Shown here: positions 2,952 through 52,800 of the stretch, piece by piece
Position numbering within the stretch: the stretch's first letter is position 1
Layout of the letters: each line of letters starts with the position of its first letter
Virus record (IMG/VR): IMGVR_UViG_3300034101_004323
Coordinates: 20,088 to 84,087 of that record
Reading direction: 5' to 3' (one strand)
Source of the DNA: a virus
DNA length: 64,000 nucleotides
Translations under genes and position numbers: made by a program
The notes under the pieces: generated by a model
The model's database searches: none
What the model saw: only the letters and a program-made list of their open reading frames with translations
Told to the model about the DNA's origin: nothing

Positions 2952-3538
2952 CAAAAATAATAGCATTCGCAGGAAGAAAACAATCAGGAAAAACAACATG
3001 CTCCGAATTTGTAGCTAATTGTTATGCTGGTTCTTTGTTAGGAACGCCACAAATATATAACTTTGCAGATCCATTAAAAAAAGATATATGTATGAATATT
3101 TTAGGCTTATCATATGACCAATGCTATGGTAGTGATGAAAATAAAAATACATTTACAGATTGTTATTGGCAAGATACTAGACTAACCGCACGAGAGGTTA
3201 TGCAATTTGTTGGTACAGATCTGTTTCGTAAAATGAAAAATAATGTTTGGGCATCGGCTACAATTAATAAAATTAAATTAGAACAACCAAAATTAGCTAT
3301 TATTGCCGATTGTAGATTTCCTAATGAAGTTGAAGCAATTCAAAATGCTGGAGGATTAGTAATAAAATTGACACGAAATCCATATGGTTCTGATCACGAT
3401 AGTGAAACAGCATTAGATCCTGAAAGATATTCTACTGAAAATTTTGATCTTATTATTGAAAATACTCATATGACTATTGGAGAACAAAATAAACTTATAC
3501 ATCAATATCTTATGGATAAAGGAATACTCTCATTATAA
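2948..3538 (+). CDS. Deoxynucleoside monophosphate kinase (T4 gp1-like)
   Basis: P-loop AGRKQSGKTT, FADPLK, REVMQFVGTDLFR, DCRFPNE, HDSET. Confidence 0.9.
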   Translation: MTKIIAFAGRKQSGKTTCSEFVANCYAGSLLGTPQIYNFADPLKKDICMNILGLSYDQCYGSDENKNTFTDCYWQDTRLTAREVMQFVGTDLFRKMKNNVWASATINKIKLEQPKLAIIADCRFPNEVEAIQNAGGLVIKLTRNPYGSDHDSETALDPERYSTENFDLIIENTHMTIGEQNKLIHQYLMDKGILSL

Positions 3539-4584
3539 TAACATATTTTAGGTCTTCAAGCTTTAATGCTCATTCAATGTGTGAGCAACAGTATTTTATA
3601 GAATACGTTCTTGGATGGAGAGGTCCGTCTGGACAAAAAGCAGATAAAGGAACGATAGTTCATAAAGTATTAGAAATTTTAGCTGTTATTAAAAAAGCAG
3701 AACAAGATAATCAATTAACTATAAATGATGATATAGCAGGCATTATAGACATTACTAATTATGATTTAGACAATATTATTGATTTAATATACAATCATTA
3801 CTCGTTATCTGCAAAACATCATAAATGGAGTCCAAAAGATAAAAAGGACTGTAGTGAGTGGGTATATAAAGCTATTAAATTCAATGATGGTATGTTTGAT
3901 CCAAGAAATAGAAAAATTCTTGAACCAGAACAGCACTTTGACTTTACTATAAATAAGTCGTGGTCAAAATACTCGTTCAAGACTGATGATGGTATAATAT
4001 CTGGTAATCTTGCCTTAAAAGGTACAATAGACCTAATCACTCTTGTTAATGATAATACTATAGAAATAATTGACTGGAAAACAGGCAGAAGACTAGATTG
4101 GGCCACAGGTCAAGAAAAAACTCAAGAAAAACTAGAAAATGATCCGCAGTTAAGAATATATCATTATGCTATTAGTCAGCTATATCCAAATATAGATCAT
4201 ATTATATTTTCAATATATTTTATAAATGATGGTGGTCCATTTTCAATATGTTTTGACAAGAGTGATCTTCAAAAAACAGAAGATATGTTAAGACAAAAAT
4301 TTGAAATTATAAAATCGTCAAAAAAACCAAAATTACATAAAAGTTGGATGTGTAATAAACTATGTCATTTTGGTAAAACAAATTTTTCTGATTCTAATAT
4401 TTTACCAATTTTAGAATATAGAGATAGTCAAACATGTAAGCAGGGCGAGTTTATGACAAAATGCGAACAAATCAAACACGATTTAGAGTTGCATGGCATG
4501 GATTCTGTGGTACAATCATACAAACACCCAAATCATTCGTTTGGTAAATATAAGGCTCCAGGAAGCATAGAGGAGAATAAATGA
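3532..4584 (+). CDS. PD-(D/E)XK exonuclease, Cas4/AddB-like; probable ATT start (first ATG is at 3577)
   Basis: GTIVHKVLE, GTIDL, IIDWKTG, QLRIY, one N-terminal Cys plus C-terminal WMCNKLC...C. The frame is open from 3520 and reads IIITYFRSSSFNAHS before MCEQQ. Confidence 0.85.
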   Translation: MIITYFRSSSFNAHSMCEQQYFIEYVLGWRGPSGQKADKGTIVHKVLEILAVIKKAEQDNQLTINDDIAGIIDITNYDLDNIIDLIYNHYSLSAKHHKWSPKDKKDCSEWVYKAIKFNDGMFDPRNRKILEPEQHFDFTINKSWSKYSFKTDDGIISGNLALKGTIDLITLVNDNTIEIIDWKTGRRLDWATGQEKTQEKLENDPQLRIYHYAISQLYPNIDHIIFSIYFINDGGPFSICFDKSDLQKTEDMLRQKFEIIKSSKKPKLHKSWMCNKLCHFGKTNFSDSNILPILEYRDSQTCKQGEFMTKCEQIKHDLELHGMDSVVQSYKHPNHSFGKYKAPGSIEENK

Positions 4585-4628
4585 TGGACGTGATTAAGGA
4601 ATATGCCCCTTTACACGTCCATTCCTAA
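4581..4628 (+). CDS. 15-aa mini-ORF MMDVIKEYAPLHVHS, the true N-terminus (PHP motif I, HxH) of DnaE, ended by in-frame TAA
   Basis: GAGGAG SD at 4570-4575; ATGA overlap with the upstream stop; same frame as 4629..6461; YAPLHVHS matches the DnaE N-terminal consensus. Confidence 0.85.
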   Translation: MMDVIKEYAPLHVHS

Positions 4629-4656
4629 GTGACTCATTATTCACTTTTGGATGGGC
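4617..4656 (+). other. RNA stem-loop spanning the dnaE internal stop
   Basis: AAGTGA (4627-4632) pairs with TCACTT (4641-4646); TCC (4623-4625) with GGA (4649-4651); GTCCA (4617-4621) with TGGGC (4652-4656); 8-nt loop. Confidence 0.65.
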
Positions 4657-6461
4657 TCAGTAAACCAGAACAAATAGCTAAAAGATGCCAAAAAATTGGA
4701 TCTAAGATTTGTGCTATAACAGATCATGGAACAATATCTGGCGCTGTACAGTTCTATTCGTCTATGAAAAAATATGGTATCAAACCGATATTAGGTTGTG
4801 AGCTATATTTATCTGATAATGATTGTACAATCAAAACTCCTGATAATGCTAAATTAAGCCATTTTATAGTTCTGGCTAAAAACTATAATGGATGGAAATC
4901 TTTAATCAAAATTATTTCCAGGTCTAATAATCCTGATATTTTTTATCATAAACCAAGAATAGATATAGATACTTTATTGCCATACTTAGATGGTAATATT
5001 ATAGGTTTTGCTGGTCATCTTGGATCATTAGTTGCAAATAGCATAAAAAACAATGACTCTAATACTACTATTAATCTTATTCAAAAGTTGAAAGACGGAT
5101 TTGGAGAAAATAATTTTTTTCTAGAAGCTCAATTAATAGACCAAGAACAAAATAAAGATCAAATTGATCTTACAAAAGAAATTAGAAGATTAGCACAAAT
5201 AACAAATACTAGAGTAATAGCCACACCAGATGCTCATTATTGTGAATCTGAAGACGCTGTTGATCAGAGGATTCTACTGTGTAATAATCTTAAGACAACA
5301 TTAACAGATATTAATAGAAAACTTATATCTGATGAAGATACTCCTATGTCTTGTTTTTTTAAATCTGATAAGTATCATATTCCTTCTTTTGAAGAAATGA
5401 GCGAAATACATAATCATAATGAATTAGAAGCAACATTAGAATTAGCTTCTATGTGTGAAGACTATGATATAACCAACAAACCAATGTTGCCATTATTTCA
5501 ATGTCCAAATAATGATAATCCGGACGAATATCTTAGACAGTTATGTAGGAATGGCTGGAAAGATAAAATAGCAAATATTATAGATCAAGATAAACAAGAA
5601 GAATACGTTAATAGAATCAAATACGAACTGTCTGTTTTACAAGGGGCTGGTCTGTCTAGCTACTTTTTAATAGTGCAGGACATAGTTAATTATGTATCGT
5701 CTAATGGGTGGTTACCAGGACCAGGAAGAGGTAGTGCGGCCGGTTGTCTGGTCTCATATTTGATAGGAATAACTAGTATAGATCCCATCAAAAATGATCT
5801 AATATTTGAAAGATTCTATAATGCAGGAAGAAATACACAGGATCGAGTGTCCATGCCAGATATAGATGTTGACGTTCCTATTAATAAGAGAGAAGCTGTT
5901 GTCGAATATATTAAAGATAAGTATGGTCATGATAAAGTCTCTCAGATGATAACATACAATACTATGAAAGGGAGAGGAGCACTTAAAGAGGTATTGAGAG
6001 TATATGGTAATATATCTTTCGACGAAATGAATAAAATAACAAAGTACATACCCGATGAAGCAAAGATAGCCGATGAATTGCAAGAAATGAAAGAAGAAAC
6101 AGGAGAGGCTTCTATTATACGCTGGGCTTTAGAGAATAATGTTGACAAACTCAAGGAATGGTGTTATTTATTAGATGATGGAACTCTATCCGGACCCCTC
6201 GCTAAAAGATTTGAGCAGGCTATTCGTTTAGAGGGCACTAAGTCTAACCAATCAAAACACGCTGCTGGTGTTGTAATATCTCAAGAAAAATTATCAGAAA
6301 TATGCCCAATGGTTTACGATAGTAAAAATAAACAATTAATAGCTGGTATGGAAATGCAAGATCTTGAATCTTTAGGTGTAATCAAATTTGATATTCTTGG
6401 AATAGCAATGTTAGATAAAATCATGAATATTTCTCAAATATTATCATTAGAAGGAGTTTAA
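4629..6461 (+). CDS. dnaE: DNA polymerase III alpha, N-terminal part (PHP + palm/thumb)
   Basis: HYSLLDG, AITDHG, GCELY, DAHY, GPGRGSAAG, FERF, catalytic MPDIDVD, HAAGVVI, KFDILG. The ORF ends shortly after KFDILG. Confidence 0.95.
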   Translation: MTHYSLLDGLSKPEQIAKRCQKIGSKICAITDHGTISGAVQFYSSMKKYGIKPILGCELYLSDNDCTIKTPDNAKLSHFIVLAKNYNGWKSLIKIISRSNNPDIFYHKPRIDIDTLLPYLDGNIIGFAGHLGSLVANSIKNNDSNTTINLIQKLKDGFGENNFFLEAQLIDQEQNKDQIDLTKEIRRLAQITNTRVIATPDAHYCESEDAVDQRILLCNNLKTTLTDINRKLISDEDTPMSCFFKSDKYHIPSFEEMSEIHNHNELEATLELASMCEDYDITNKPMLPLFQCPNNDNPDEYLRQLCRNGWKDKIANIIDQDKQEEYVNRIKYELSVLQGAGLSSYFLIVQDIVNYVSSNGWLPGPGRGSAAGCLVSYLIGITSIDPIKNDLIFERFYNAGRNTQDRVSMPDIDVDVPINKREAVVEYIKDKYGHDKVSQMITYNTMKGRGALKEVLRVYGNISFDEMNKITKYIPDEAKIADELQEMKEETGEASIIRWALENNVDKLKEWCYLLDDGTLSGPLAKRFEQAIRLEGTKSNQSKHAAGVVISQEKLSEICPMVYDSKNKQLIAGMEMQDLESLGVIKFDILGIAMLDKIMNISQILSLEGV

Positions 6462-6462
6462 T

Positions 6463-6642
6463 ATGAATAAAGTATTTTCTGAATTAGCAGTCGGTGAAAG
6501 ATTCAATTTAAATGGCGTCGATTATATAAAGATACAAGAAGTCAGAGTTAGTTGTTGCAGATCTATAAATGCTCAGGATGCAAATAATCCAGCAACCAAA
6601 ACATTTGTCCAAGCTTCAACAACGGTAACTATTAATGCCTAA
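6463..6642 (+). CDS. 59-aa hypothetical protein, absent from the ORF track
   Basis: AAGGAG SD at 6451-6456; ATG 6463; MNKVFSELAVGERFNLNGVDYIKIQEVRVSCCRSINAQDANNPATKTFVQASTTVTINA*; fills the gap exactly and overlaps the next start. Confidence 0.8.
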   Translation: MNKVFSELAVGERFNLNGVDYIKIQEVRVSCCRSINAQDANNPATKTFVQASTTVTINA

Positions 6643-7336
6643 TTTTCAAAAAATCTGTGTTTTCGACATGGAAACGGACGGGATTAACCCGGATGTTTGC
6701 AGTCCAGTACAAATCGCTGCTGTTGTTATTGATCCAATAAAATTAGAAATAGTCAAAGATTCAGAATTTAATATAAATCTCAAGCCAGAACTTTTAGAAA
6801 ATAATACAAGTTATGCCTATGAGGACAGTGATGTTTTGGATTTTCATTCCAAAGTTAGAGGATGTTCTAAAGCAGCAATCCTTGACTCATGGAAAAAATA
6901 CCAGTCACAAGAGGCTGGCTGGAAAATGTTTGTCTCTTATCTTGAAATGTATCACATTAAATCAAAGGGAAATAAAAAATCCTGCTTTTCTGCACCAATT
7001 GCTGCTGGATTTAATATTAATAGATTTGATTTGCGTATTATAGAAAGATTAAGTAAAAAACATAATAATCTTAATAAAGAAGGAAGATCTTCTTTATTCT
7101 ATCCAAGAGATGTTATTGATGTTATGAACTTATTATTTTATTGGTTCGAATACAATAATGAGTTAAAAAACTATACATTAGATAATCTAAGAGACTATCT
7201 TGGCATAAATAAAGACAATGCTCACGATGCACTAAAGGACGTAAAAGATACAGCAGACATTATGACTAGATTTTTAAAACTACATAGAAGCCTATCTAAT
7301 AAGGTTAAATTCAAAGGATCTTTTATAAATGCCTAA
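6635..7336 (+). CDS. DEDDh 3'-5' exonuclease (DnaQ/epsilon-like proofreader)
   Basis: ExoI FDMETDG, ExoII GFNINRFD, ExoIII AHDALKDV; lies between the two dnaE halves. Confidence 0.9.
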   Translation: MPNFQKICVFDMETDGINPDVCSPVQIAAVVIDPIKLEIVKDSEFNINLKPELLENNTSYAYEDSDVLDFHSKVRGCSKAAILDSWKKYQSQEAGWKMFVSYLEMYHIKSKGNKKSCFSAPIAAGFNINRFDLRIIERLSKKHNNLNKEGRSSLFYPRDVIDVMNLLFYWFEYNNELKNYTLDNLRDYLGINKDNAHDALKDVKDTADIMTRFLKLHRSLSNKVKFKGSFINA

Positions 7337-8945
7337 ATGGTCATTTGATTGTGGATGTTGTTTTGATATAATAGGATCATCTGGAGATAAACATAAGCTT
7401 GTCTTCTCTCCCAAGATAGAATCTATAAACTTATCATGCTCAAAAACATGGGAACTAATTTCTTCTGGCAACACAAAAGGCTGTTTTCAGTTAGAATCTA
7501 GGCTTGGGCAAATGATGGCAAAAAAGCTTAAGCCTGAAAATATAGAACAATTATCTGGTCTGATTAGTATTTTAAGACCAGGGTGCTTGGAAGCAATTAG
7601 AGAAGGTAAAAGCGTAACCAATCACTATATAGACAAAAAGAATGGATTAGAGTCTATAAATTATTTTCATGAATCATTAGAGAGATCTCTCAGTACAACA
7701 TACGGAGAGATGATATATCAAGAACAAGCCATGTCAATAGCAAAAGATTTGGCTGGATTTGATCTACAAGAAGCTGATTCTTTAAGAAAAGCCATTGGTA
7801 AGAAAAAACCTGAAGAAATGGCTAAAGTTAAACAGAAATTTTTAGACGGAGCAAAAAAACTAGGCGTTGTAAATATACAAGAAGCAGAAGAGATCTTTGG
7901 ATGGATAGAAAAAAGTCAAAGATATTCATTTAATAAATCTCACGGAATATCCTATGCTATGAACGCATACCTATCGGCTTATGCAAAAGCTCATTTTCCA
8001 GAAGCATTTTTTGTATCTTATTTAAAATTTGCAAAAGATAAAATAGATCCACAGCAAGAAATAAAAGAGTTAATAAAGAATGCTAATGAAATGGATATCC
8101 TGGTTTGCCTTCCAGATTTAAGACTGAAAAATCCAAATTTTGGCATTTTTAATAACAAGATTTATTTTGGTTTAACAGATATAAAAGGAGTTGGAGATTC
8201 TGTCTTCAGTAAGATCACTGATATCTGTATAAATATTGATCTTTATAATCTTGGATGGATGGATTTATTATTAAAGCTATTACTTAATATTAATTCGACA
8301 GCTGCAAAAGCTCTTATTTCTAGTGGAGCTATAGATTATGTATCAAAAAATAGAACAGAAATGTTATTTGAGTTCGAAATTATTAGTTCATTAACTAAAA
8401 AAGAAATAGAATATGCTAGTATGGTTACTCAAACAACAACATCTACTAAAGACATGTTAACCTATTTACTTAACCATAATAAGGTTAATGTAAAACGAAA
8501 ACAGATAATACAAAGTTTATTACAGAGTGTTAATAAGCCACCTTATTCTTTAATAGATAAGATAGAATGGCTTGCTGATACTGAAGCTTCTTTGCTCGGA
8601 ACTGCTATATCCTGTTCTAAGTTAGATAGTTATGATATAGAAATGACTAATGTAGACTGTAAAACATTTAAAACCAGTAATAATGCTGCTAATATTATTA
8701 TCGCTGGGGAAATTACTAATATTAATGTTGTAAAAACTAAAAAAGGAAAATTACCAGGACAAGAAATGTCTTTTGTTTCAATAGAGGATCAAACAGGGGC
8801 CTTAGATTCTGTTATATTTTTTCCAGAAACATATGCTAAATATAAGCATTATTTATTTGAAAATAATATTCTTATTTTTATTGGAAATAAAAGCAAAACC
8901 AAAGACGGTCTGGTTGTAGATAAATGTTTCGTTCCCAAGTCTTGA
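7329..8945 (+). CDS. dnaE: DNA polymerase III alpha, C-terminal part (fingers, HhH, OB fold)
   Basis: TKGCFQLES, LRPG, IYQEQ, LRKAIGKK, YSFNKSH, FGLTDIKGVG, OB fold IAGEIT...KTKKG...MSFVSIEDQTG. Confidence 0.93.
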   Translation: MPKWSFDCGCCFDIIGSSGDKHKLVFSPKIESINLSCSKTWELISSGNTKGCFQLESRLGQMMAKKLKPENIEQLSGLISILRPGCLEAIREGKSVTNHYIDKKNGLESINYFHESLERSLSTTYGEMIYQEQAMSIAKDLAGFDLQEADSLRKAIGKKKPEEMAKVKQKFLDGAKKLGVVNIQEAEEIFGWIEKSQRYSFNKSHGISYAMNAYLSAYAKAHFPEAFFVSYLKFAKDKIDPQQEIKELIKNANEMDILVCLPDLRLKNPNFGIFNNKIYFGLTDIKGVGDSVFSKITDICINIDLYNLGWMDLLLKLLLNINSTAAKALISSGAIDYVSKNRTEMLFEFEIISSLTKKEIEYASMVTQTTTSTKDMLTYLLNHNKVNVKRKQIIQSLLQSVNKPPYSLIDKIEWLADTEASLLGTAISCSKLDSYDIEMTNVDCKTFKTSNNAANIIIAGEITNINVVKTKKGKLPGQEMSFVSIEDQTGALDSVIFFPETYAKYKHYLFENNILIFIGNKSKTKDGLVVDKCFVPKS

Positions 8946-8970
8946 CATTTGAACGCGACCGGGCTATAAT
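8942..8970 (+). promoter_or_regulatory. Consensus sigma70-type promoter for ssb
   Basis: TTGACA (8942-8947), 17-nt spacer, TATAAT (8965-8970). Confidence 0.9.
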
Positions 8971-9015
8971 AGCTGCGTGGGTTGAATTTGTACTTTAATT
9001 TTGAGGAGATTTGAT

Positions 9016-40856: not shown

Positions 40857-43800
40857 TTATACTTGAAAAGGATTAATTAGTGGAGATCCTGCTATTTGAT
40901 TTGCTGCTGCTAGTTCAGCAAACTTTTCTTGTATCACTGACATAGCAATATCTTGTAAATCCGGGGACAGCTTATTCAATGCGGCATCTCCATTAATTAT
41001 CACATTATGAGTATGTGTTACTGTTATAGTTATTTCCTGTGGTATTGCACTTAATCCGGCCAAAGTATCAGCTACGCTCTTAAGTCTGTTGGTAAATTCA
41101 CCAATCTTATTAAGAGTATCCGAGTCAATAGAAGATACACCATTTGATGGCGCTGCTGCCGTTTGACCGCTCATTGCTTGGACGGCATTCTGAAAAGCTA
41201 ATGTAATAGAACTACTAATTTGGCCAACTATATTACCCATATAGGAGGACAAATCAAACATTTTATTTCCACCAGTTACACCTCCTGCTGTTTCATAATA
41301 ATTTGGAGTTATTATTCCACCATTAGATAAATAATTAACAATGCCACCTCTTGTATAATATCCGTCATTAATAGCTTTTAGTACTGGTAGATGTTTTTGT
41401 GTTGCTTTACGATTAATAACAAATTCGCCAGGAGTTAACATGGCAGGAACAGTATCAGTTCCACGAGGTTGATAATTTACAAGAGTTCCATTCTTGGCAT
41501 ATACTGGCACTCGTCCCCCTGTTGCAAAGTTTTTAACACCAGAAAATACATTTCCAGCCCCTTCTTGATTTTGATCATTCTTTTTTTGTTGTTCTTCTTT
41601 TAGATTAGCTGATGCTCTTATTAGAGCTTCTACTTGATCAGCATGAAGAGTATCTCGTCCATTTTCTAAGTTTAAGTCTCTTTTATAAGCATGCGCAAAA
41701 CTATTCCAGTGAATTTTTCCATTATCGCTTGATATTGCTTTTAAAGAATCTACAAAATATTTATAACCATAACCCACATTATTCTCATTCCATGGAATGA
41801 CAGCATTCTTATCATCAGACTCTCCGGTTTTTAGTCCTGTATTAAGTAGTGTATCAAAAGCTCTAAAATAAAGCCAAATATCTTTTAATCTAGTTTCTTT
41901 TTCTTTTTTGAGATCGTCTGGTAAAAGATCCTCTCCGTATTCATTTTTTCCTCTAAAATAAAATTTTCGTAATTTATCAATAAGCTCACTTCTATCTTCA
42001 GAATTTGGAAAAATTCTTTGAGGATCTAAAGCAACTTCCATTAATCTATTCCAACTATCAGGAAGTGCTTGTTCTGCACTTTCTACTTTACCAGCTCCTT
42101 TGGTTCCAAAAGTATAAGAATCGCCCTTTAACTTATCGTCTTTGGTTTGTATGAATTTAGTACTAGTTCGTTTTGTCATATTTGACATTATTTGTCTATT
42201 TATTATTTTTTGTAATAAATCTTGACTAACATTCATTCTGTTCCAATATTTAATATAATCTTCACCCAAATCAGTTTTTCCCATTACAGCATTACTTATA
42301 ATCTTTGTTTTGTTTCGATCATCTGGATCAGCAACTACCCTTGTTTCAGGGAAGCTCTCATCAGACAAATTTACTCCAAGATCTTGTAAAGTTTGTGTGC
42401 TATTTGTATCTTTCAGATTATATATTTCAGCAAAAACTGCTCTCCAAGCATCTATCCTTTCTCTTTCATAATTTCCAGGAAGTAAAGATGTTGGTATTTT
42501 TGATCCTATATTAGCAGCAGCATTTCCAATATCAGCAACACTTGTCATTTCTTTACCTATTGAGGAACTCACTAGGGGTGGTACATCATCACCAAGTCTT
42601 GCTAACCTATAGAACTCTCTTGCTAAAGTTACTTTTTTAGCATCATCAATCTTGGCATATTCTCCTATACTAAAATCAGTTTTAGCATATGATAATGCTG
42701 TTTCATTCTTGATTTTTTCCATATTAGCTTCACGAGCTTTGAAAAATTCATCTAGATTCAAGTCTAATGTTTCGTTAGATATAAAAGATTCACTACCAAA
42801 TTTTGAATCATAAATAGGACTATATGGAATTCCATTACTAGCTGATAGATTCGGAATTTCGCGGTAGTCTGTGCCTCCTCCCAGTATGTAGTGGTCTACA
42901 TAGTCATCTAAACGAGATTCTGGCAAGCCTAATGTATTATCACTTATTCCAAGAAACGGATTAAAAGGTCTCATCTTCTCATCATTTCCTTGCGGTGGAA
43001 TTATTACATGCGGTTCCTTTACTCCTAATTCTTCAAAAGATTTTCCAAATCTTTTTTCATTTTCCAAATATAATCTACTCTTAGGATCATATTTGATATA
43101 ACTAAATTTGACACCATTCTTGTCATAGTTTCCTGGTGATCTTATTACTGGTTGTTGCACCATATCTGGTGATGTTACAGCTTCTCTGAAAATCTCATCA
43201 TAGTCATCCAAACTTAAATTAGCATCAGTCCATCTAAAATATTTAACAGTTCCATCTTTATTAATTCCAAGCATATCGGTTTTTTCTTCATCGCTGTACT
43301 GAAATTTTTGTTCTCCATCTTCTGCCTTCTTTGTGTTTAATGCTGCTAATTTAGCTTGATATTCTGTCCATCTGCCACTAATAGCTTCATTATAAGCTGT
43401 AATAGGGGCTAAAGGAGATCCAGCCATTGCTGAAGGTTCTATAACGGGCTTATCTAATTTTATAGATGCTACTGTTCCATTATATAAATTAACTAAATCG
43501 CTAACATTCTGTTTATTTCCTAAAGATTCTTTTGTTTCGCTCTCAAATTTCTCTGAAAGTAAAGCATCTTGATATCGTAATGCTGTCAATCTGATATTTT
43601 GGGCTAATTGTAGCGTTGCTATACTTTCCGTCTGATAATCTTGTATAACATTAGAAAAATTTGCCATTCCGTTTGGTGGCTCATGTTTAATCGTTTGTCC
43701 CTCGAAGTCGAACCTGCCACCTTCCATACCCTCTTTTCTTATAAAATTTTCTTTACCAGATACAATAGGAAAGTTCTTTTCTCTTCCAAAACCATCAGCT

Positions 43801-46800
43801 CTAAAACCAATAATATTACCAACAGGACTATTCTTTGCTTTTGCATAAAGATCGTCTCGTTGTTCCTTTCGGATAAAATAATAATAACTATTATCTTTTG
43901 AGGCTAATCCTTTAATTTCTGCTGATCCATCAGCATAAGAAGTAAAAGAAGGATTTAATGATGGTACCTTACTTGGTGTGTCTAATTTTACTTTAACTCC
44001 GTCAATAGTCGCTTCTCGACCACTTACTTCGCTCACTTCGGTTAAAGACTTAACAATCATATCCAAATTAGCTAAGACATCAGGTTTTTCTGTTTTTTTA
44101 ATTTTTCTGGTCTTTGGATCAACAGGATTAAAAATATGCTGATCAAATGTATTTTTTATTGGAATACCACCCCATCCCCAATTCCCAGAACTGTTATTAA
44201 CAGCTCCAAAAGCCACATTATCTTTTGTGTTTTGACCTAATTTTGCCTGTTGCTTTATACTATCATAACCCCATCCAAATACTGGCATAGTATTAAAAGT
44301 TGGAGAACCAGAATACATAAATTTGCCATCGGTTCCTTTTTTAGGAACCAAAATATCATTTCTAGGTACTGGTTCTGTAGCATAAAACGAACCTTGAAAG
44401 GTAGACCAATTTTCAGTTTTACTTTTTACAGTATCTTCTGATAATGGTTTGTCATCATTAATAATAGGATATTCTTTATTTGATTCTTTTTCAACAATTG
44501 ATGTTCTAGCAAATGATTGTCTAGCAGACTCTGCTGCATCTTTCGGAGCAAAACCTCCAGTAACAACATAACCTCCATCAGCATAATATTTAACTTTACC
44601 ACCATTACTATAATTTCCACTATTAATATTCTTTAATAATGGAAGATGTTTTTGCGTAGCACTTCTATTAACAACAAATTCTCCCGGTGTTAACATAGCA
44701 GGAACAGTATCTGTTCCTTTGGGCTGAAAATTTACCATTTGTCCAGCAGAAGCATAGATGATACCACCATTTGCTTTTCCTGGAGCCATAGCTGCCGGGT
44801 TCTTTTCAACAATAATTCTTAATTGTTTTATTTCGTTTGCGATATCTTTAAGTTGAGCATTTTCAAAAGTGAATGGAACGCTTCTCATTGCTGATACTAA
44901 TTTTGCTGCTGCTATTTCTGCTGTATTTTGGTTCATTAATCTAACAATATTACCTAATTCAGTATTGGCTAATGATTGTGCATCAACAGCTTTTTTGTAT
45001 GCAGTAATAGCTTCTTGCATCTCTGGATCACCTTCTGGATTTCTTAGAGATTGCAAAACATCAGCCATCATAGGATTAATTCCAACTCCGCTCTCTATTA
45101 ACATGCTCTCAAGAACATTGGCTTTCATACCATTCTGTTTTTCGCCTAAAAATGGTGCTATCATATTAAATGCATCTAAACTTTCTTTTCTTTGATCAGC
45201 ACTACTGCCAAAATTAATACCACCTTGCATATTATTATTTAATCTATCCATAGCTCTATTTAATTGACTAAGTTCTTGAGGACTACTGGTTACCAACCTC
45301 TCAGCCATATTTACGCCAGCTTGACGTTTTTGCTGTATCTCATTAATCTTGGACATAGCAATACTGGCCATCTCCGTATTATCAGCCATACTCTTTAACG
45401 CATCATAATTTTCTCTTAATGCAATATTCGTATTTCTTAAACGATCTTGCATCATCATGAATTCGTCTGTTCCAGCATATCCTCTTTGTCCAGCAGTATT
45501 ACTCATGCTTTGTTGAGTTGCTCTTTGAGTTTCTAATGTTCTAACATTCTGAGCAATGAGAGCAGGATTTGTTTGTCCTCCTGTTTGAGCTTTAACTCCG
45601 GCCAAAGAAGCATCAAGTTGTTGCCTTAATGAAATTTCTTTACCAAGAGCTTTGTCTAGCTCCATCTGTCCTCTTACTTGTATATCCGAAGCTCGTCTGA
45701 ATCGTGAATTAGCTTCAATTGAAGACTCTACCATTTGATTCATAGCATTTGAATAATCATTCAAATTATTTTGCCAATGTTCTAATGCTTTTATAGCAGC
45801 TTCTTGTGCTTTCCTTGTAGAATCCATAATATTTCCAAGTTGTGGAATTTTTTCCATTAAATCTCCAAAATCAATTTTTTCATCACGCTTTTGGCGAATT
45901 TGTCCTATGGCAGCATTGACTTCTTGACTTAATTTATTATTAATATCTTTTGGTAATTTAAGTTTAGTTAAAGCTTCTTCTATATTATTTTGAATTTTTA
46001 TACCAATTTTTTCATTACCAGCATTTGGATCTTCTTTAATTGTTTTATTAATAGTAGACATTATGGTATCTTGTAATGTGCCACCAGCTTGTAATAATCC
46101 TTTCATATCACCAGATTCTGATCCAAACATATTTGCTGCGTTTTGTGATGCTTCTGCTCTTTGTGTTTTATTATATGCATTTGGATTTTGTAACACATTA
46201 ATACTTTTGAGTGATACTTGACCAGCTTTAGCATTACCAGATAAAGCACTTGCTGATAATTCTGCTTGTTGACTTAAATTATTTAATTCAAAAACATTTC
46301 GACCAATAGCTTGTTCCATATTCTGGAACATTCTTGTTAAACTATTTTGCAAATGATTAGCAGATTTTGACAATTCCTCTAACTTCATTTGTTTTAGTGT
46401 TGTTGCTTGTATTTCTCGTGCTTTTCTTTCTCCCTGTATGGAAATAATAGATTCTTTTTTAGCATTTTTCTCTTCTTGTGTAAGACCTATAGAATTTTGT
46501 ATATTCAGTATTTGTTCTTGGACAGCAGCATCTGCCAAGGCTAAACTTCTTGTTAACTTGGTAAAATCTGGTGTTCCGGCCACATCTTTGATCTGAGTGC
46601 CTGATCTTATTTTTTCTTCAATAAGTTGAGAAGAAATCTGCGCTGTACCAGCATAGTCTTTTGCTGCTTCTACTGATTTTTTAGGAATCATTGTTGCAAA
46701 TAGTTTTTGCTGTTTCTCAGCAGCACCACCACCAAAAGTAGCAGAAAAATAATCACTCATCCCTTTTTCAAATAGTATATCTGATCTTTCTGATGATCCT

Positions 46801-49800
46801 TCTCCAGTATCGAACAAATTGGCAAAACCTCGACGAGCTCTGGATTTTTCTTTTTGTACCTGATCTGCCATTCCTGTAGACTTACCAATTTGTTGTTCTA
46901 CTACTCTTTGTTTAACTTCATTTTTCATGTCTTTCTTGAATTCTTCAAAAGCTTTTCCTGTTGTTTCTAAAGATGCTTCTAGATTTTTGGAAGCTAATGA
47001 AATTGCCATTTCTCTAGCAGCATTCTCAGCATCTATAAAAGCTTTTGTCATTCCAATAACTGCTGTTACAGCTGCGGCTGCTGGACCAGCAAAAGCGGCT
47101 ATGCCTCCCATTCCTTGTGTCATCTCACCAACCATTGATCCCATCATCAAACTGCTTCCAACTGTTGTTGCGGCTCCCTGAGTCAGGGTTTGATTATATG
47201 CTCCTGATGTTGTGGTTGGAGCTCCTCCGCTAAACATATCAGTTAGCATGGGAATCAGAAAACTTGCTGTCATTGCTCTGCCCATCATATTTCCACCACC
47301 TCCACCAGAGCCACCACCTCCACCGACTCCTCCAGAGCCACTACCATTTTTGCCGCCTCTAGCTGCTGCTAATATTTGATTAGTGCTCATACCAGCAGCA
47401 GCACCCAAGCCTACTCCTGCTGTTCTATTTGCTGCTTGTATTGCAGTTGCTTGTGCTCCTCCTTTTCCGTATCCTGCTGCTTGTAAAGTAGCTTTTTTAG
47501 CTGCTGCAACATCAGCTTTGGATTGACCGCTCATCGCTGCTGTATCAGCAGAACTAGTACCAAAAACCGAAACTCGACGAGTTGCTCTGCCAAATGCTCC
47601 TGTTCCTGTAGGTATATCTGATGTCATTCCTCTTATATCATCCATTGCTTGTCTAGCTTGAGTACCCTGTCTTCTTACTCCTAATAAAGTTTCAGCACCA
47701 CCTGTTCTATTTTTTCTATATGCTGTTGCTGAATCATCTAAGCTTTTTGCTGTTTTACGTGCCGCATCTCTTAGTGCTCCTAGTGGATCAGCTAATAAAT
47801 TTTGTCTAAAAGATCCTAAAGCTGTTGCAGCATCTCCTAATGTTTTTCCAAATCTTGCTTGATTTTGCTGTTTTCTTTCTGTATCAGCAACAGCCATTTG
47901 TGTTAATGTATTTCTTTTTAATCTGCTTCGTTCTCTTTCTCTCCTAGGATCAGAAGCTGAAAAACGACTATCAACATCTGCATCTATTTGACGCATTCTA
48001 GCTTGTCCTCTAACTGTTGATCTTTTTTCTCTCAATATTTGATATCCTTCTGGATTCCTAGCTAAATTTCTTCCTAATGTATTTACATTATAAAATCCTG
48101 TGCTTGATGCTGCATTATCAATCATACTTTGTGCATTTGCTCTTCTTGCTTCTTGTCTTCTTTTTTTTGCTTCTGATGATAATCTTCTTCTCTCAGCTTC
48201 TTCTCGTCTTCTTTGAGCTTCAGGGTCAATCTCGGCAGTAGCTAAAGGTTCCCATGAACCTCTTGCAAACTTCTGAACAACTCCGCCACTATGATACTTA
48301 GGCAACTTGTTTAATGCTGTAAACCCACCCTTATTAAGTTTGTCAAGATTATTATAACCTAGATCTTGGGCAGAATTTTTATTAATAACATATTCACCCT
48401 CTTTAGCCATAATGGGTATTTCGCCACCAGATGCTTTTTTAACTACCGAGCTTTTTTGTTTTATTTTATCCGGAGCTTTAAAATATGAACTTTGTAATGC
48501 CCAAGCATCAGCTCTTAAAGAAGCTTCTTCAGCAGATTCACCTGGACCACCGTGATATGGTGGCCATTCTGATTTTGGTCCCTTTAATCTAGGATCAAGT
48601 AAATTACTTGCTGTCCAATATTGTTTTGGTAGTGGAGTTTTAAATACGTCTTTACGAGTTAGAAAATAACGTTTCCATACCCCTTTAGCAGCAGGAGTAA
48701 CACTACCTCTATCTGATGTTAATCTTCCACCAGATTCTGCTACTGATTCCATAAGAGTATCATATAATCCACGAGGCGCAAATCCTTTGGTAGCATTAGC
48801 AAAACTAACAGCAAATAATTTTGGCCCTATCTTATTAGCTTTAACGGTCCCAAATCTTTCTTTCTCATATAATTTACCAGTAAATGCTGCTGTAACTTCT
48901 CCTTCTTCTGGTTTTCCATATAAACCAATTTTACCATATGCTCTTCCACCACCTCTTATTTTTCCTTTTTCTATAGCGTCTCGTCTTTTTTGTAGAAGAT
49001 CTAATTCCTCCATTTCTTGTTGTGTTTTATCTTTCTTATACATCAGAGAGACTAATCTTCCACTATCTGGTGCAGCATTTGCTAAACCTGTGTATCCGCC
49101 TTTTGCATGTTTTTTTAGTCTAGGTCTATATCCTTCTGCTCTTAAAGCTTTCTGTTCTGATGTTAAGCCTTCGTATTCTCCCATGCTTCCGCCACGACGT
49201 TCTACTGCGCTTTGTATTCTTTGTCTTTTTTCTTCTACTGCTTTATCTCTTCTTTCTTGTTCTGCATAGATCTTTTTTGATGGTAGTAATCCCAATTTCT
49301 TGCTTATGTCCCAATCTGGAAGAGCATAGTCTTTCCATCTATTGTCTAGTCTTTCCTCTAATTTAGCTGTTAATTGTTCTGGTGTCATACCTAGAATATT
49401 AGCTCGTGCAGCAATATCAGCCGGAGAGTATTTTCCTCTTACCCAATCACCCTCAGAATATCCGGACCTAGATTTTATAAAGTTTTTTATATTACTAACT
49501 ATTTTGCCTTTTGGTCCTGTTAATGTTCGTTTAGCGTCAACAGGTGTTCTGGCCAATAATGGATTATTAAACCAGTTTGTTGCTATTTTACTTCCTATAC
49601 CATAAGGAAAGTCTATACTACTATGCTTTTCGCTATCTTTACTCATTGCTGTCCAAATATTAGCAGCGGCCGGATCTTTCGATATGATTTGCCTTATTTC
49701 TTCTTCAAAAGCATTTCCTTGAGTATCTGCTATGCCTTTTCTGGTTGCTCTACCCATAGACGATTTAGTTTTTTTGTATAAAAATGATTTTATGCCAGAT

Positions 49801-52800
49801 AATTTAGAAGCAGCAGCAATATTATCTGGATCATCATCAACAAATACTCCTTTATCCTGTCCCAAAGCTTGGGCCATAACATTTGCTTTAGCTAGTCCTA
49901 TATCTGCTGCGGAAGTTCCTTTTGCCCCAACTCCGGTAAAATTACTTAATGGTATATTTAATCCTCTGCTATTAACCCAACTAGCAATAGATCCTACAGT
50001 GCTTTGAGGTCTTGCTGTTACAATATGTAATCTGGACAAAAATTTATTATAATCAGCAGGAGAAAATTTCTTTTTAAGTTGACTAGATAAACGCACAAGC
50101 CCTCTAAATAGAGCAGATGGTTTGGTTTTAGCCAATTCCATTTTCGCTCTAACTTTATCACTCAATCCTCTTGCAACAGATGCTTTTTCATAAAATTGAC
50201 TATACATACCAGCTTTGGATGTTTTATCATCCATTGTCGGGGTTTTACCTGTTTTTTTAAATATTTCTTTTTGTTTTTCTGTTATAGGATCAGTGTTAAA
50301 TGCTAGTGTTTTATCAAAATCAAAAAATGCTTTAAGACCAGATCCTCGTGGATCTAATAGCTTAATAATCTCATCAACATATGATTTTTGAACACCTTGC
50401 CCGACCATTTTTAGATATCCCTTAGTATATTTCTTAGCTCTTTGATCAGCAGTTGGTGCTGCCTCTACAGATGCTCTATTAGGATCCTTCTTATCCATCT
50501 GTGCTAAACGAGCTTCTCTTTCAATGTTGTTTTTATCTAATACTTGACCAAACACTCTAACCTTTTTAGATCCATCTAGTCCAGGAATGTCTATGTCTGT
50601 TGGCGGAAAACTAGATCCAAACATTCCTATAGCACCAAATAATGAGTCTGAAGAAATTGCATTATTTGTATCTTCATTATCTTTATTTCTTCTATCTTCT
50701 ACTATTTTATTCGCTTTAACTACTAGTGAACTTAATATTTTAGATTTTAATGTTGGATTTTTGCTATATGGTCCTAATAAGGTTCTTATATCATTAGCTG
50801 ACATACCAGTATTACCACTAATACTACCAGCAGATTTTAGTATCTCGGTAATATCAATTCCTAGCTGGTTAGGTAGTTGAGCAGATGGTATTTTTGATAC
50901 TTCGTCAAGAGTCCAATCATTCATTCTCACATTTGCTCTTCTTCCTCCTCTACCTTTTTTAACAAAAGATCCGGCCATTAATTTTTGAACATCTTCTGGC
51001 TTGGTTTTTTTCTTTGATCTTCTATAAAATAATGATCGTTGAGTTTTTTCTATATCTCTCTGTGATCTATAATCTTTATTTTTTAATAGTCCTGGAGTAT
51101 TATCTTCAAAAATAAGAAATCTTCCAATATTAATATTATTAGGATCTTTATTTAAAGTTATTGATCTTGTTTTATCTGCTACTACTTTTTCACTGGCAGA
51201 TCTTTCTGAAATAATAGATCCTGCTACTTTATCCAGCAAATCACGAGTTGATACCTGAGCATCTTTACTTTTTACCTCAACGGGTGTGTTTCCTCGTAAT
51301 CCATCGATTCTAGAAAATCTATTCCCTTTCTCTTGTTTATATTTTCCAAGTGTATCTAAAATTCTTTCAAAGGCTGTACCTCTAGCAGAACTACCTTTTG
51401 ATCCTGTTGCTCCTCTACTATTGATATAGTTTTCTGTCTCTACTGGATTCTTTTCTCTAGCTTTCTTAATATCCTGTTCAGTCAAATTTATGGGTACTCT
51501 GCGAATATTAGCTTCTATAGTATCTCTAGTATTAAACCTTAAAGGAGGACTTGCTCTTCTTTTAAGTGCCTTTTCGATACTTTCTCCCTCTTTCTTATCG
51601 TAAGTTGTTTCTACATTAGGAACATATGGTCTACTAGACTTAAGTACGGCTAATCCTCCTTTAGCAAACTTTTGTGTGCCCTTTCCACCCAAACCCAATG
51701 CTTCAGTTGCTTTTTTTCTAATAACAAAACTTCCTACTGGTAGTGTTGTATAAAAACTATCAGTATTACCTCTTCCAGGAACTATTCCAATCCCACCTCC
51801 GCGTGCTCTTTTTTGTCTATATCCATTTTTATCAGCATGATTCATTTTTCGTAATGTTGATGTTCCTATTCTAGCAGCATGTTCTGGATAAAAAACAGCT
51901 TCTCCTGGTGTTAGAGCAACAGGAACATTAGAAACGTCTCCTCCTCCTGCATACTTATTGATGAATCCTCCCTTTTTAGCTCCTTGAGCTCCATTAGTCC
52001 TGAATCCTCTTAAAAATCCAGAACCAAACTGCCTTACTCCACTAGCTCCTCTAAAAGCCATCATAATAGCAAGAACAGGAAGAACACCCTTAACACTATC
52101 AGCAACACTAATAAGAGCGCTAGCTAATCCTAATGCTCCTTTAGCTAATGCTTGAAAAGTATCGCTACCGCCAATCTCTCTGAATAAGGCTAAAAATTCT
52201 TCTCGTACTTTTGCTGCTTGATTTGCTAAAGAAGCTTGTGCTTTAGCAGCATCCATAGTTAAAGATCCTTGACCTTGTTGAGCAACTCTTAGTGCGTCTT
52301 GAGCAGTTGCGAACTGCTGAATAAGAGGAATAACCTTACCAATTTGTCGGAATCCGCCCAGTTCTTCTACTATCTCACTAAATTTTAAATCTCGCGGATC
52401 AATTTGATTTAATCCTTCGCTTAGTAACTGAACTGCTTTATATGCTCCGACGAATTTTCCTTCTGCATCTGTAAGATTTACGCCGAATTCTTTCAAGGCT
52501 TCAATAGTTCCGCCTCTTTGAATTCTGGTAAAAATAGTCCTTAAACCAGTAGCAATAGTTTCTGCACTTTCACGAGTTGTTGCTCTAACGCTAGTAAATA
52601 CTGCTATAAATTCATTCAAAGCATCCGTGCCTTCACTAACTCCTTTACTAGCAGAAGCAAACACACCACCGGTTCGTTGAATAGCAGCAATAATATCACT
52701 TGCTTCAACAGCAAATTTAGCAGATACTGCGTTAACAGCACCAAGAGATTTCTCTAAATCAATTGCACTAATACCAAACTGTCTCATTAATGCAATACTA

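Follow-up and report, generated by a model that had tools for sequence, protein, structure and literature searches.

A candidate short programmed translational bypass in the dnaE gene of an uncultured lake phage

The interrupted dnaE locus and its relatives

The dnaE gene of an uncultured lake phage, a DNA polymerase gene of the DNA polymerase III (Pol III) alpha type, is interrupted after 14 - 15 codons by 9 nucleotides (nt) that open with a stop codon. The gene lies in a 64,000-nt stretch of DNA (the window, to which all coordinates refer), which is part of the 84-kb IMG/VR virus record IMGVR_UViG_3300034101_004323, estimated to be 59% complete. The short segment that carries the interruption, called the cassette here, recurs in related phages, and its comparison suggests that ribosomes pass the stop by a short hop. 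Features are on the plus strand unless stated otherwise.

The cassette begins with a Shine-Dalgarno (SD) sequence, GAGGAG (4570 - 4575), upstream of an ATG at 4581. This ATG is overlapped by the TGA (4582 - 4584) of the upstream open reading frame (ORF; 3577 - 4584), a PD-(D/E)XK nuclease gene (Pfam PF12705, E value 4.8e-16), and a second ATG is found at 4584. From 4581 the window reads ATG ATG GAC GTG ATT AAG GAA TAT GCC CCT TTA CAC GTC CAT TCC TAA and, after the stop, GTG ACT CAT TAT TCA CTT TTG GAT GGG. This translates as MMDVIKEYAPLHVHS, a stop and VTHYSLLDG, in frame with an ORF of 610 codons (4629 - 6461) that contains the PHP and DNA_pol3_alpha domains and is identified by Pfam as Pol III alpha catalytic. 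The first-pass annotation of the window had reported an SD-led ATG coupled to the upstream gene, the stop and the shared frame, and the sequence is exactly as claimed.

The first reading frame, ORF1 (MMDVIKEYAPLHVHS; 4581 - 4625), accounts for the first strand of the PHP domain and for its HxH metal motif. Its canonical 14-codon form starts at ATG 4584 and reads (M)MDVIKEYAPLHVHS. The final sense codon, UCC (Ser; 4623 - 4625), is the proposed take-off codon. It is followed by the 9-nt coding gap UAA GUG ACU (4626 - 4634), composed of the stop, 3 nt and the codon at the landing position, ACU. ORF2 (4635 - 6461) opens with the resume codon CAU, begins HYSLLDG and runs to a TAA at 6459 - 6461; it is the N-terminal half of DnaE, comprising the rest of the PHP domain and the palm (PF02811 and PF07733). 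Omission of the 9 nt (4626 - 4634) recovers LHVHSHYSLLDG, a motif that is uninterrupted in 57 relatives and in the solved structure of Taq Pol III alpha (2HPI), which has no indel between HxH and SLLDG and the same spacing as the intact relatives. The interruption is thus an insertion and not a point nonsense mutation, as had been proposed.

An assembly error, a concern raised with the original observation, is excluded because Logan contigs from two other lake-water metagenome runs cover the site (4527 - 4842 in run X6 and 4553 - 4921 in run X7) with 0 differences; both are lake runs unflagged as possible sources of the window DNA. Contigs from runs X1 and X7, of the same lakes, with loose ends at window position 4641 carry another cassette, CACGTCCATTCTTAAGTGAGATCACATTTC, which has a 12-nt gap and is of the type of locus L141. 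A single habitat thus contains more than one cassette variant.

A protein-guided scan of IMG/VR recovered 80 loci whose DnaE N-terminal halves are 69 - 94% identical, giving 81 dnaE loci with the window. The gene order primase, deoxynucleoside monophosphate (dNMP) kinase, PD-(D/E)XK nuclease, dnaE is kept in 81 of 81. Fifty-seven loci encode an uninterrupted M..Y-x-P-L-H-x-H-S-H-Y-S-L-L-D-G. The other 24 have a stop directly 3' of H-V-H-Ser, always at the same codon. After two DNA pattern scans of IMG/VR contigs the sequence-distinct cassettes number 47, far beyond chance. The original suggestion of a candidate programmed recoding of the replicase holds.

All 47 cassettes are built on the same plan: an SD, an ATG and a 13 - 14-codon ORF1 of the form M-(D/G)-(V/M)-x-x-x-Y-x-P-L-H-V-H-S. 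The SD is AAGGAG-like and lies 6 - 9 nt before the ATG in nearly all of them; an extra ATG at the start of ORF1 is found in the window and in L001/L003. ORF1 ends in H-V-H-Ser(UCY), the take-off codon being TCT in 32 cassettes and TCC in 15. The stop right after it is TAA in 24 and TAG in 23; TAR was fixed by the scan patterns, and the 24 loci found by protein similarity agree with a stop there. Beyond the gap comes CAY or ATG, followed by (Y/F)SLLDG (HD-SLLDG in L136).

If the gap is taken to run from the stop to the last base before the resume codon, its length is 8 nt in 3 variants, 9 nt in 9, 10 nt in 16, 11 nt in 18 and 12 nt in 1. Omission of the gap gives LHVHS(H/M)(Y/F)SLLDG (HD in L136) with the consensus spacing in all of the 8 - 12-nt variants. 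Features expected of the relatives at the outset were a conserved stop and covarying stem pairs, both of which are found, and insert lengths in multiples of three, which are not: 37 of the 47 gaps are 8, 10 or 11 nt long. The codon at the landing position is TCT in 16 variants, TCA in 11, TCC in 3, ACT in 8 and GCY in 9, with the central C invariant. It is thus a Ser codon (TCN) in 30; the pair of the window, UCC and ACU, matches at two of three positions. ATG, GTG and TTG are missing from the downstream frame in 22 of the 47. The L139 group has an ACT landing codon like the window and an 8-nt gap, TAACGACT, that contains no start codon. In L017 a TGA stands in the +1 frame immediately 5' of the landing codon, where the ORF2 frame first becomes open.

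RNA structure and selection in the cassette

The 5' stem-loop of the cassette is formed by element A, AUGGACGUG (4584 - 4592), which includes the start codon, and element B, CACGUCCAU (4614 - 4622), which consists of the H-V-H codons and abuts the take-off codon. The A:B helix has 9 base pairs and is absent from intact alleles. Over 40 distinct sequences 99.4% of its alignment cells are paired, and one compensatory pair is GC in 23, AU in 14 and GU in 3, the G-U pairs being intermediates.

The take-off stem-loop (4627 - 4646) pairs AAGUGA (4627 - 4632) with UCACUU (4641 - 4646) around an 8-nt loop, in which the landing codon ends and the resume codon lies. The stop codon is in the 5' arm of this stem, and the Ser-Leu codons of Y-S-L-L are the 3' arm. 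An outer stem, GUCCAUUC (4617 - 4624) with GGAUGGGC (4649 - 4656), extends it to the hairpin 4617 - 4656 pointed out in the first-pass annotation, with the stop in its 5' arm. On folding, this hairpin of 8 + 6 base pairs has a free energy of -20.4 kcal/mol and a z-score of -2.85; 1 of 200 shuffled sequences folds as well. The minimum free energy averages -26.9 kcal/mol (z = -4.3) in interrupted alleles and -6.4 kcal/mol (z = 0.13) in the same region of intact ones.

The stop-containing stem covaries as well. Four classes are found, AAGUGA:UCACUU, UAGAGA:UCUCUA, UAGCGA:UCGCUA and UAACGA:UCGUUA, and in a register-aware count the helices formed by an allele's own arms average 5.7 base pairs, compared to 4.76 for shuffled partners (0 of 5000 shuffles). 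Counting from the alignment understates the covariation of this inner stem because MAFFT misaligned the short-gap variants. RNAalifold independently returned the A:B helix and a hairpin closed at its base by pairing of the take-off codon with GGA. Folded from ATG 4584, the window forms the two hairpins next to each other in its minimum free energy structure (-24.9 kcal/mol). Element B has an alternative partner in GGAUGGGC (4649 - 4656), with which it forms a long hairpin that competes with the A:B helix. A search of Rfam gave only a sub-threshold chance match to a lncRNA, on the minus strand.

Residues Y, P, L, H, V, H and S of ORF1 are invariant across the 47 cassettes, although their codons vary synonymously: 5 are used for Leu, 2 for Pro and 2 for Tyr. 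Val is always GTC and the second His always CAT, the latter having been fixed by the first scan pattern. The conserved residues are those of intact DnaE. As they sit in the loop of the RNA helix, RNA structure is not the cause of their conservation, and the pattern indicates that ORF1 is translated and that its product matters. ORF2 is full length in all interrupted loci, with a dN/dS ratio of 0.02 - 0.06 at dS of 0.5 - 2.4 between cassette-bearing pairs. Judged from these substitution patterns, both ORFs are under purifying selection.

The proposed bypass and its alternatives

The comparison of cassettes suggests that synthesis of the N-terminal half of DnaE probably depends on a short programmed translational bypass. 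A ribosome would initiate at ATG 4584 (or 4581) and translate 14 - 15 codons up to the Ser codon UCC (4623 - 4625). When UAA enters the A site, the ribosome would keep its peptidyl-tRNA-Ser rather than terminate, and the stop-containing stem may form there like the A-site stem-loop of T4 gene 60, hindering the release factor. The peptidyl-tRNA-Ser would then uncouple, the mRNA would slide by 9 nt (4626 - 4634) to place ACU in the P site, and decoding would resume at CAU 4635. The product, ...YAPLHVHS-HYSLLDG..., would be the exact consensus of the uninterrupted relatives; its expected junction is EYAPLHVHSHYSLLDGLSK and the expected tryptic junction peptide is EYAPLHVHSHYSLLDGLSKPEQIAK.

The A:B helix may have a part in this. 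At take-off element B would occupy positions -9 to -1 and would start to leave the ribosome only as the slide proceeds, so that re-formation of the helix behind the ribosome could favor forward movement. The same has been proposed for the 5' stem-loop of gene 60 (bioRxiv 10.1101/2024.12.09.627546; 10.1101/2022.08.31.505936). The start codon being part of the helix, a second ribosome would also be denied access to the message. Polysomes are reported to bypass less well, which agrees with such a closure. The first-pass annotation had recoding in a stop-bearing hairpin right; the helix of start codon and H-V-H codons and the HNH endonuclease origin described below were not part of it.

Several points weigh against a bypass. 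The hop is deduced from comparative sequence alone. The landing codon of the window is ACU (Thr) and not Ser, so that the tRNA-Ser anticodon could pair at only two of three positions; in 17 of the 47 variants overall the landing codon is not a Ser codon, and the strict match of take-off and landing codons known from gene 60 is not kept. Unlike in gene 60, the landing and resume codons are in the hairpin loop. A nascent-peptide signal in the exit tunnel like that of gene 60 is unlikely because ORF1 has only 14 codons, and a dedicated signal could not be told apart because intact DnaE has these conserved ORF1 residues too. Variants of the 8- and 11-nt classes have 22 - 73 nt of open downstream frame before the stop, where a -1 shift would add 3 - 4 residues, and a +1 shift is blocked in only one variant (L017). 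In the outer stem of the extended hairpin 96% of cells are paired, which counts for less because part of the stem conservation was set by the search patterns (GTCCATTC and TTGGATGG were fixed). The DnaE tree used below comes from a quick IQ-TREE run.

A short ribosomal hop was one of four options offered at first, and it is the sole one that fits all relatives. For the window by itself, readthrough of the UAA would yield S-X-V-T-H with a 3-residue insertion, and re-initiation at GUG 4629 would yield M-T-HYSLLDG, lacking the HxH strand. The gap of the window is a multiple of three and its GTG is in frame, as is the GTG in all GTG-type 9-nt variants and in the 12-nt variant. In most relatives, however, these two options fail, as they need a gap that is a multiple of three or a chance in-frame start: 37 of the 47 homologous gaps put the downstream ORF out of frame, a start codon is lacking from the 9-nt variants TAGAGATCA and TAGCGATCT, and neither route is open to the L139 group (TAACGACT) despite the ACT landing codon it shares with the window. 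No natural relative, nor 2HPI, has extra residues between HxH-S and HYSLLDG, which speaks against readthrough. The GUG at 4629 - 4631 lies within the stem and lacks its own SD, and re-initiation would leave the amino acid conservation of ORF1 unexplained. Both routes are improbable.

That conservation would be accounted for if the enzyme were made in two pieces, the released 14-residue ORF1 peptide supplying its PHP strand in trans and ORF2 being started at a non-canonical codon in the hairpin loop. Phages of this group do already have DnaE split into N- and C-terminal halves. Yet beyond the last stop in the ORF2 frame 22 of the 47 variants offer neither ATG, GTG nor TTG, in L017 that frame is not open before the landing codon, the resume codon is not preceded by an SD, and a free 14-mer carrying two metal ligands is implausible as a stable subunit. 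Such an arrangement is very improbable.

A +1 or -1 frameshift before the stop in the 8-, 10- and 11-nt classes, adding 3 - 4 residues, combined with readthrough in the in-frame classes, has as little to recommend it. The downstream frame does overlap ORF1 by 22 - 73 nt in most of the 8-, 10- and 11-nt variants, and +1 frameshifting is known to be stimulated by an A-site stop codon, as in prfB. One homologous cassette would, however, need three different mechanisms. The invariant CAC/CAT GTC CAT TCY TAR contains no slippery heptamer or other slippery site, and a tRNA-Ser bound to UCY has no means of re-pairing with CUU/CCU or UUC. In L017 the TGA in the +1 frame before the landing codon rules out a simple +1 shift and leaves no frame overlap. 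Furthermore, the products would have residues inserted into an invariantly spaced motif.

It is hardly credible that the 8 - 12 nt are removed from the RNA by a micro-intron or by editing, or are skipped by RNA polymerase, and that translation is ordinary. The gap is known here from DNA contigs only, a search for sequencing runs having listed just DNA metagenomes, and lies within a conserved hairpin, as such removal would allow; but its ends are not conserved (TAACGACT, TAGAGAATCA and TAAGTGGGCT are examples), no Rfam family matches and there is no homopolymer for slippage. The lack of common ends in gaps of 8 - 12 nt and of an Rfam match also disposes of the micro-intron among the options first listed. 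Group I and group II introns are more than 10 times longer than these gaps, and to our knowledge no bacterial or phage system excises 8 - 12 nt. That dnaE is dead, a pseudogene or a sequencing artefact as its in-frame stop might imply, is barely conceivable given identical sequence in independent assemblies, 47 conserved variants, a dN/dS of 0.02 - 0.06, a downstream ORF that is full length everywhere and the finding of no other polymerase (no PolA or PolB gene) in the 84-kb record.

Other ideas were tried and rejected. An SD-like gap (AGGUGA) is not a general landing aid, as AGCGA, AACGA and AGAGA variants exist, and the TTG of S-L-L-D-G is not an internal start, as it is CTG in several variants and has no SD.

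Origin, genomic context and known systems

In five relatives (L050, L099, L105, L136 and L144) the cassette abuts a gene of about 240 - 250 codons for an HNH endonuclease (PHROG 3322/374), whose protein matches generic phage HNH families. The stop codon of this gene falls inside AUGGACAUGA in L099 and L144. C-terminal remnants of the gene, comprising its last 51 - 80 codons only, are found in 7 further loci; neither the window nor the rest of the 84-kb record has the gene. Remnants of the original dnaE start, MKNYIPLHVHAH and MKNYIPLHAHSH, precede the HNH gene in L050 (approximately 2151 - 2189 of that locus) and L136 (approximately 712 - 750), each ending at a stop and of the form MKNYIPLHxHxH-stop. 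They are now dead-end mini-ORFs, and the cassette copy lies downstream of the HNH gene. These remnants thus indicate that an element inserted itself between the His and Tyr codons of S-H|Y, bringing its own replacement 5' end and gap. Interrupted alleles are scattered over the DnaE tree, where well-supported branches require at least 6 changes of state and parsimony requires 10.

Taken together, the sequence comparisons indicate that the cassette was left behind by a mobile HNH homing-endonuclease element, of which it formed the 3' end. By analogy with mobA, the most likely role of the gap is to shield the invaded allele from the nuclease. The window has lost both the nuclease gene and the old dnaE start by deletion and retains an orphan cassette. 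The PD-(D/E)XK ORF of the window now runs into the SD region of the cassette, with last codons ..SIEENK. The C-terminus encoded at 4560 - 4584 is ..GSIEENK, compared to the usual ..GSTE in relatives, and this tail appears to read through the SD/tail region of the HNH gene of L050 (..NKENIK..), which suggests a deletion that fused the tail regions of the PD-(D/E)XK and HNH genes. The spacers between nuclease gene and cassette are not homologous between clades, so that in loci without the HNH gene no conserved 5' boundary is found beyond the SD. It is possible that the cassette is no more than a scar left by a selfish element; a role in translational control is unproven.

Other features accompany these elements. 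A shared motif, (T)GGTGTATA or TAGTGTATATG, is found about 20 - 40 nt before the start codon of the HNH gene in L050, L099, L105, L136 and L144, and is a possible phage promoter from which the nuclease gene is transcribed. In L020, L023, L025 and L132 the 92 - 99-nt spacers between the PD-(D/E)XK stop and the cassette ATG contain near-consensus sigma-70 promoters (TTGACA-17 nt-TACAAT). Some cassette alleles may thus transcribe dnaE from a promoter of their own; the window has no such spacer. Paralogous HNH genes, 28 - 37% identical to the cassette-linked one, are located elsewhere in the replication module and not next to dnaE (positions 1249 - 1797 in L023/L024, 1305 - 1811 in L025, 660 - 1157 in L084 and 99 - 758 in L138).

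DnaE is encoded by two genes in the window (4629 - 8945), an N-terminal half of 610 codons and a C-terminal half of 538 codons (7329 - 8945; fingers, HhH and OB). Between them lie a 59-codon ORF (6463 - 6642) and a gene for an epsilon-like 3'-5' exonuclease (6635 - 7336); the Pfam matches over 6635 - 8945 are PF00929, PF17657, PF14579 and PF01336. As 80 of 80 relatives match only about 605 - 610 residues of the N-terminal half, the split appears to be conserved in the group. On the minus strand, an ORF of 4228 codons (40857 - 53543) matches tail tape-measure families in its N-terminal part (PHROG 4211/167/28) and would be an unusually long tape measure; it is flanked by giant ORFs of 2394, 1961 and 1967 codons (18162 - 40833, minus strand). 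No tRNA genes were found within the window.

A megablast search of 3500 - 9000 against GenBank phages gave no match, and the nearest cultured phages are only about 34% identical at the protein level. When 185,579 bacterial and archaeal genomes were scanned for the pattern, 7 matches appeared, all by chance and without YSLLDG, and thus neither a host clue nor a prophage copy was obtained.

A search of the full-text literature found no description of a bypass in dnaE. Natural programmed bypassing is very rare, being known from the T4 gene 60 family, Streptomyces phage terminase candidates and yeast mitochondria. A second nuclease-linked family, if true, would show that the association recurs; it is apparently unrelated to gene 60, a judgement made without direct comparison of the MobA/gene 60 cassette. 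It would place a bypass in a replicative polymerase, with gaps of only 8 - 12 nt. The 47 natural 'mutants' vary in gap length, stop codon, landing codon and stem sequence, and the cassette would provide a small model, of about 90 nt, for ribosome take-off, slide and landing. Gene callers truncate such dnaE genes (in the window, to the GTG start at 4629) or label them pseudogenes, and phage annotation pipelines therefore under-report an essential enzyme.

A further-reaching proposal is decidedly more tentative. The cassette would be a minimal, structure-driven bypass that has neither a long nascent-peptide signal nor a strict landing match, in which the slide of 8 - 12 nt is pushed or locked by the RNA while the start site is closed to the next ribosome, and the partnership of HNH nuclease and bypass would have arisen independently in a second essential replication gene. 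If it did, a selfish nuclease combined with a hop would be a general way into invariant protein motifs and not a T4 one-off.

The closest known system is the gene 60 bypass of T4, which is part of a MobA HNH homing-endonuclease element (Huang 1988; Bonocora 2011, summarised in bioRxiv 10.1101/2022.08.31.505936 and 10.1101/2024.12.09.627546). In the mobA/gene 60 case the invaded allele is shielded from the nuclease by the bypass insert, which often persists after the nuclease has been lost; some gene 60 clades have orphan cassettes, as the window does (bioRxiv 10.1101/2022.08.31.505936). Both systems have a sense take-off codon followed immediately by UAG or UAA, these two codons being located on the 5' side of a stem-loop that is preceded by a separate 5' stem-loop. 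Both interrupt an essential replication gene at an invariant motif. An HNH gene lies just upstream (for dnaE, in relatives) and overlaps the start of an element-borne replacement segment, and both show a patchy distribution and a stepwise loss of the nuclease with the bypass kept.

The differences are also clear. The host gene is dnaE rather than the topoisomerase gene 39/60, and the gap is 8 - 12 nt compared to 50 nt (20 nt in the shortest published clade). The 14-codon ORF1 makes a nascent-peptide signal resident in the tunnel unlikely, and the landing codon is in the loop of the take-off hairpin and is often unmatched (ACU in the window). The 5' stem-loop of dnaE is 0 nt from the take-off codon, rather than 9, and includes the start codon. 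Furthermore, the dnaE bypass is so far a proposal from nucleotide sequence.

Low-efficiency stop-hops in E. coli constructs (Weiss, Dunn, Atkins and Gesteland 1987; O'Connor 1989; reviewed in PMC5009743) are similar in that a peptidyl-tRNA passes a stop over a few nucleotides to a nearby similar codon, independently of frame. As described there, they are synthetic or accidental, inefficient and require matched codons, whereas the dnaE cassette is natural and conserved, lies in an essential gene and has a dedicated, covarying RNA structure. The terminase gene of Streptomyces phage Hau3 is a candidate for bypassing, and mass spectrometry of the junction peptide in E. coli supports the hop (PMC10732093). 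It too is a phage gene split into ORFs that apparently needs a bypass, but its take-off is tied to a rare UUA codon and the supply of bldA tRNA, in a different gene and context, and neither an HNH cassette nor a start-codon helix is described there. The byp elements of Magnusiomyces mitochondria (Lang 2014) are likewise mobile inserts within protein-coding genes that ribosomes jump. These elements differ in being 27 - 55 nt long and mitochondrial, in having an unassigned sense codon at take-off and in occurring in many copies per genome.

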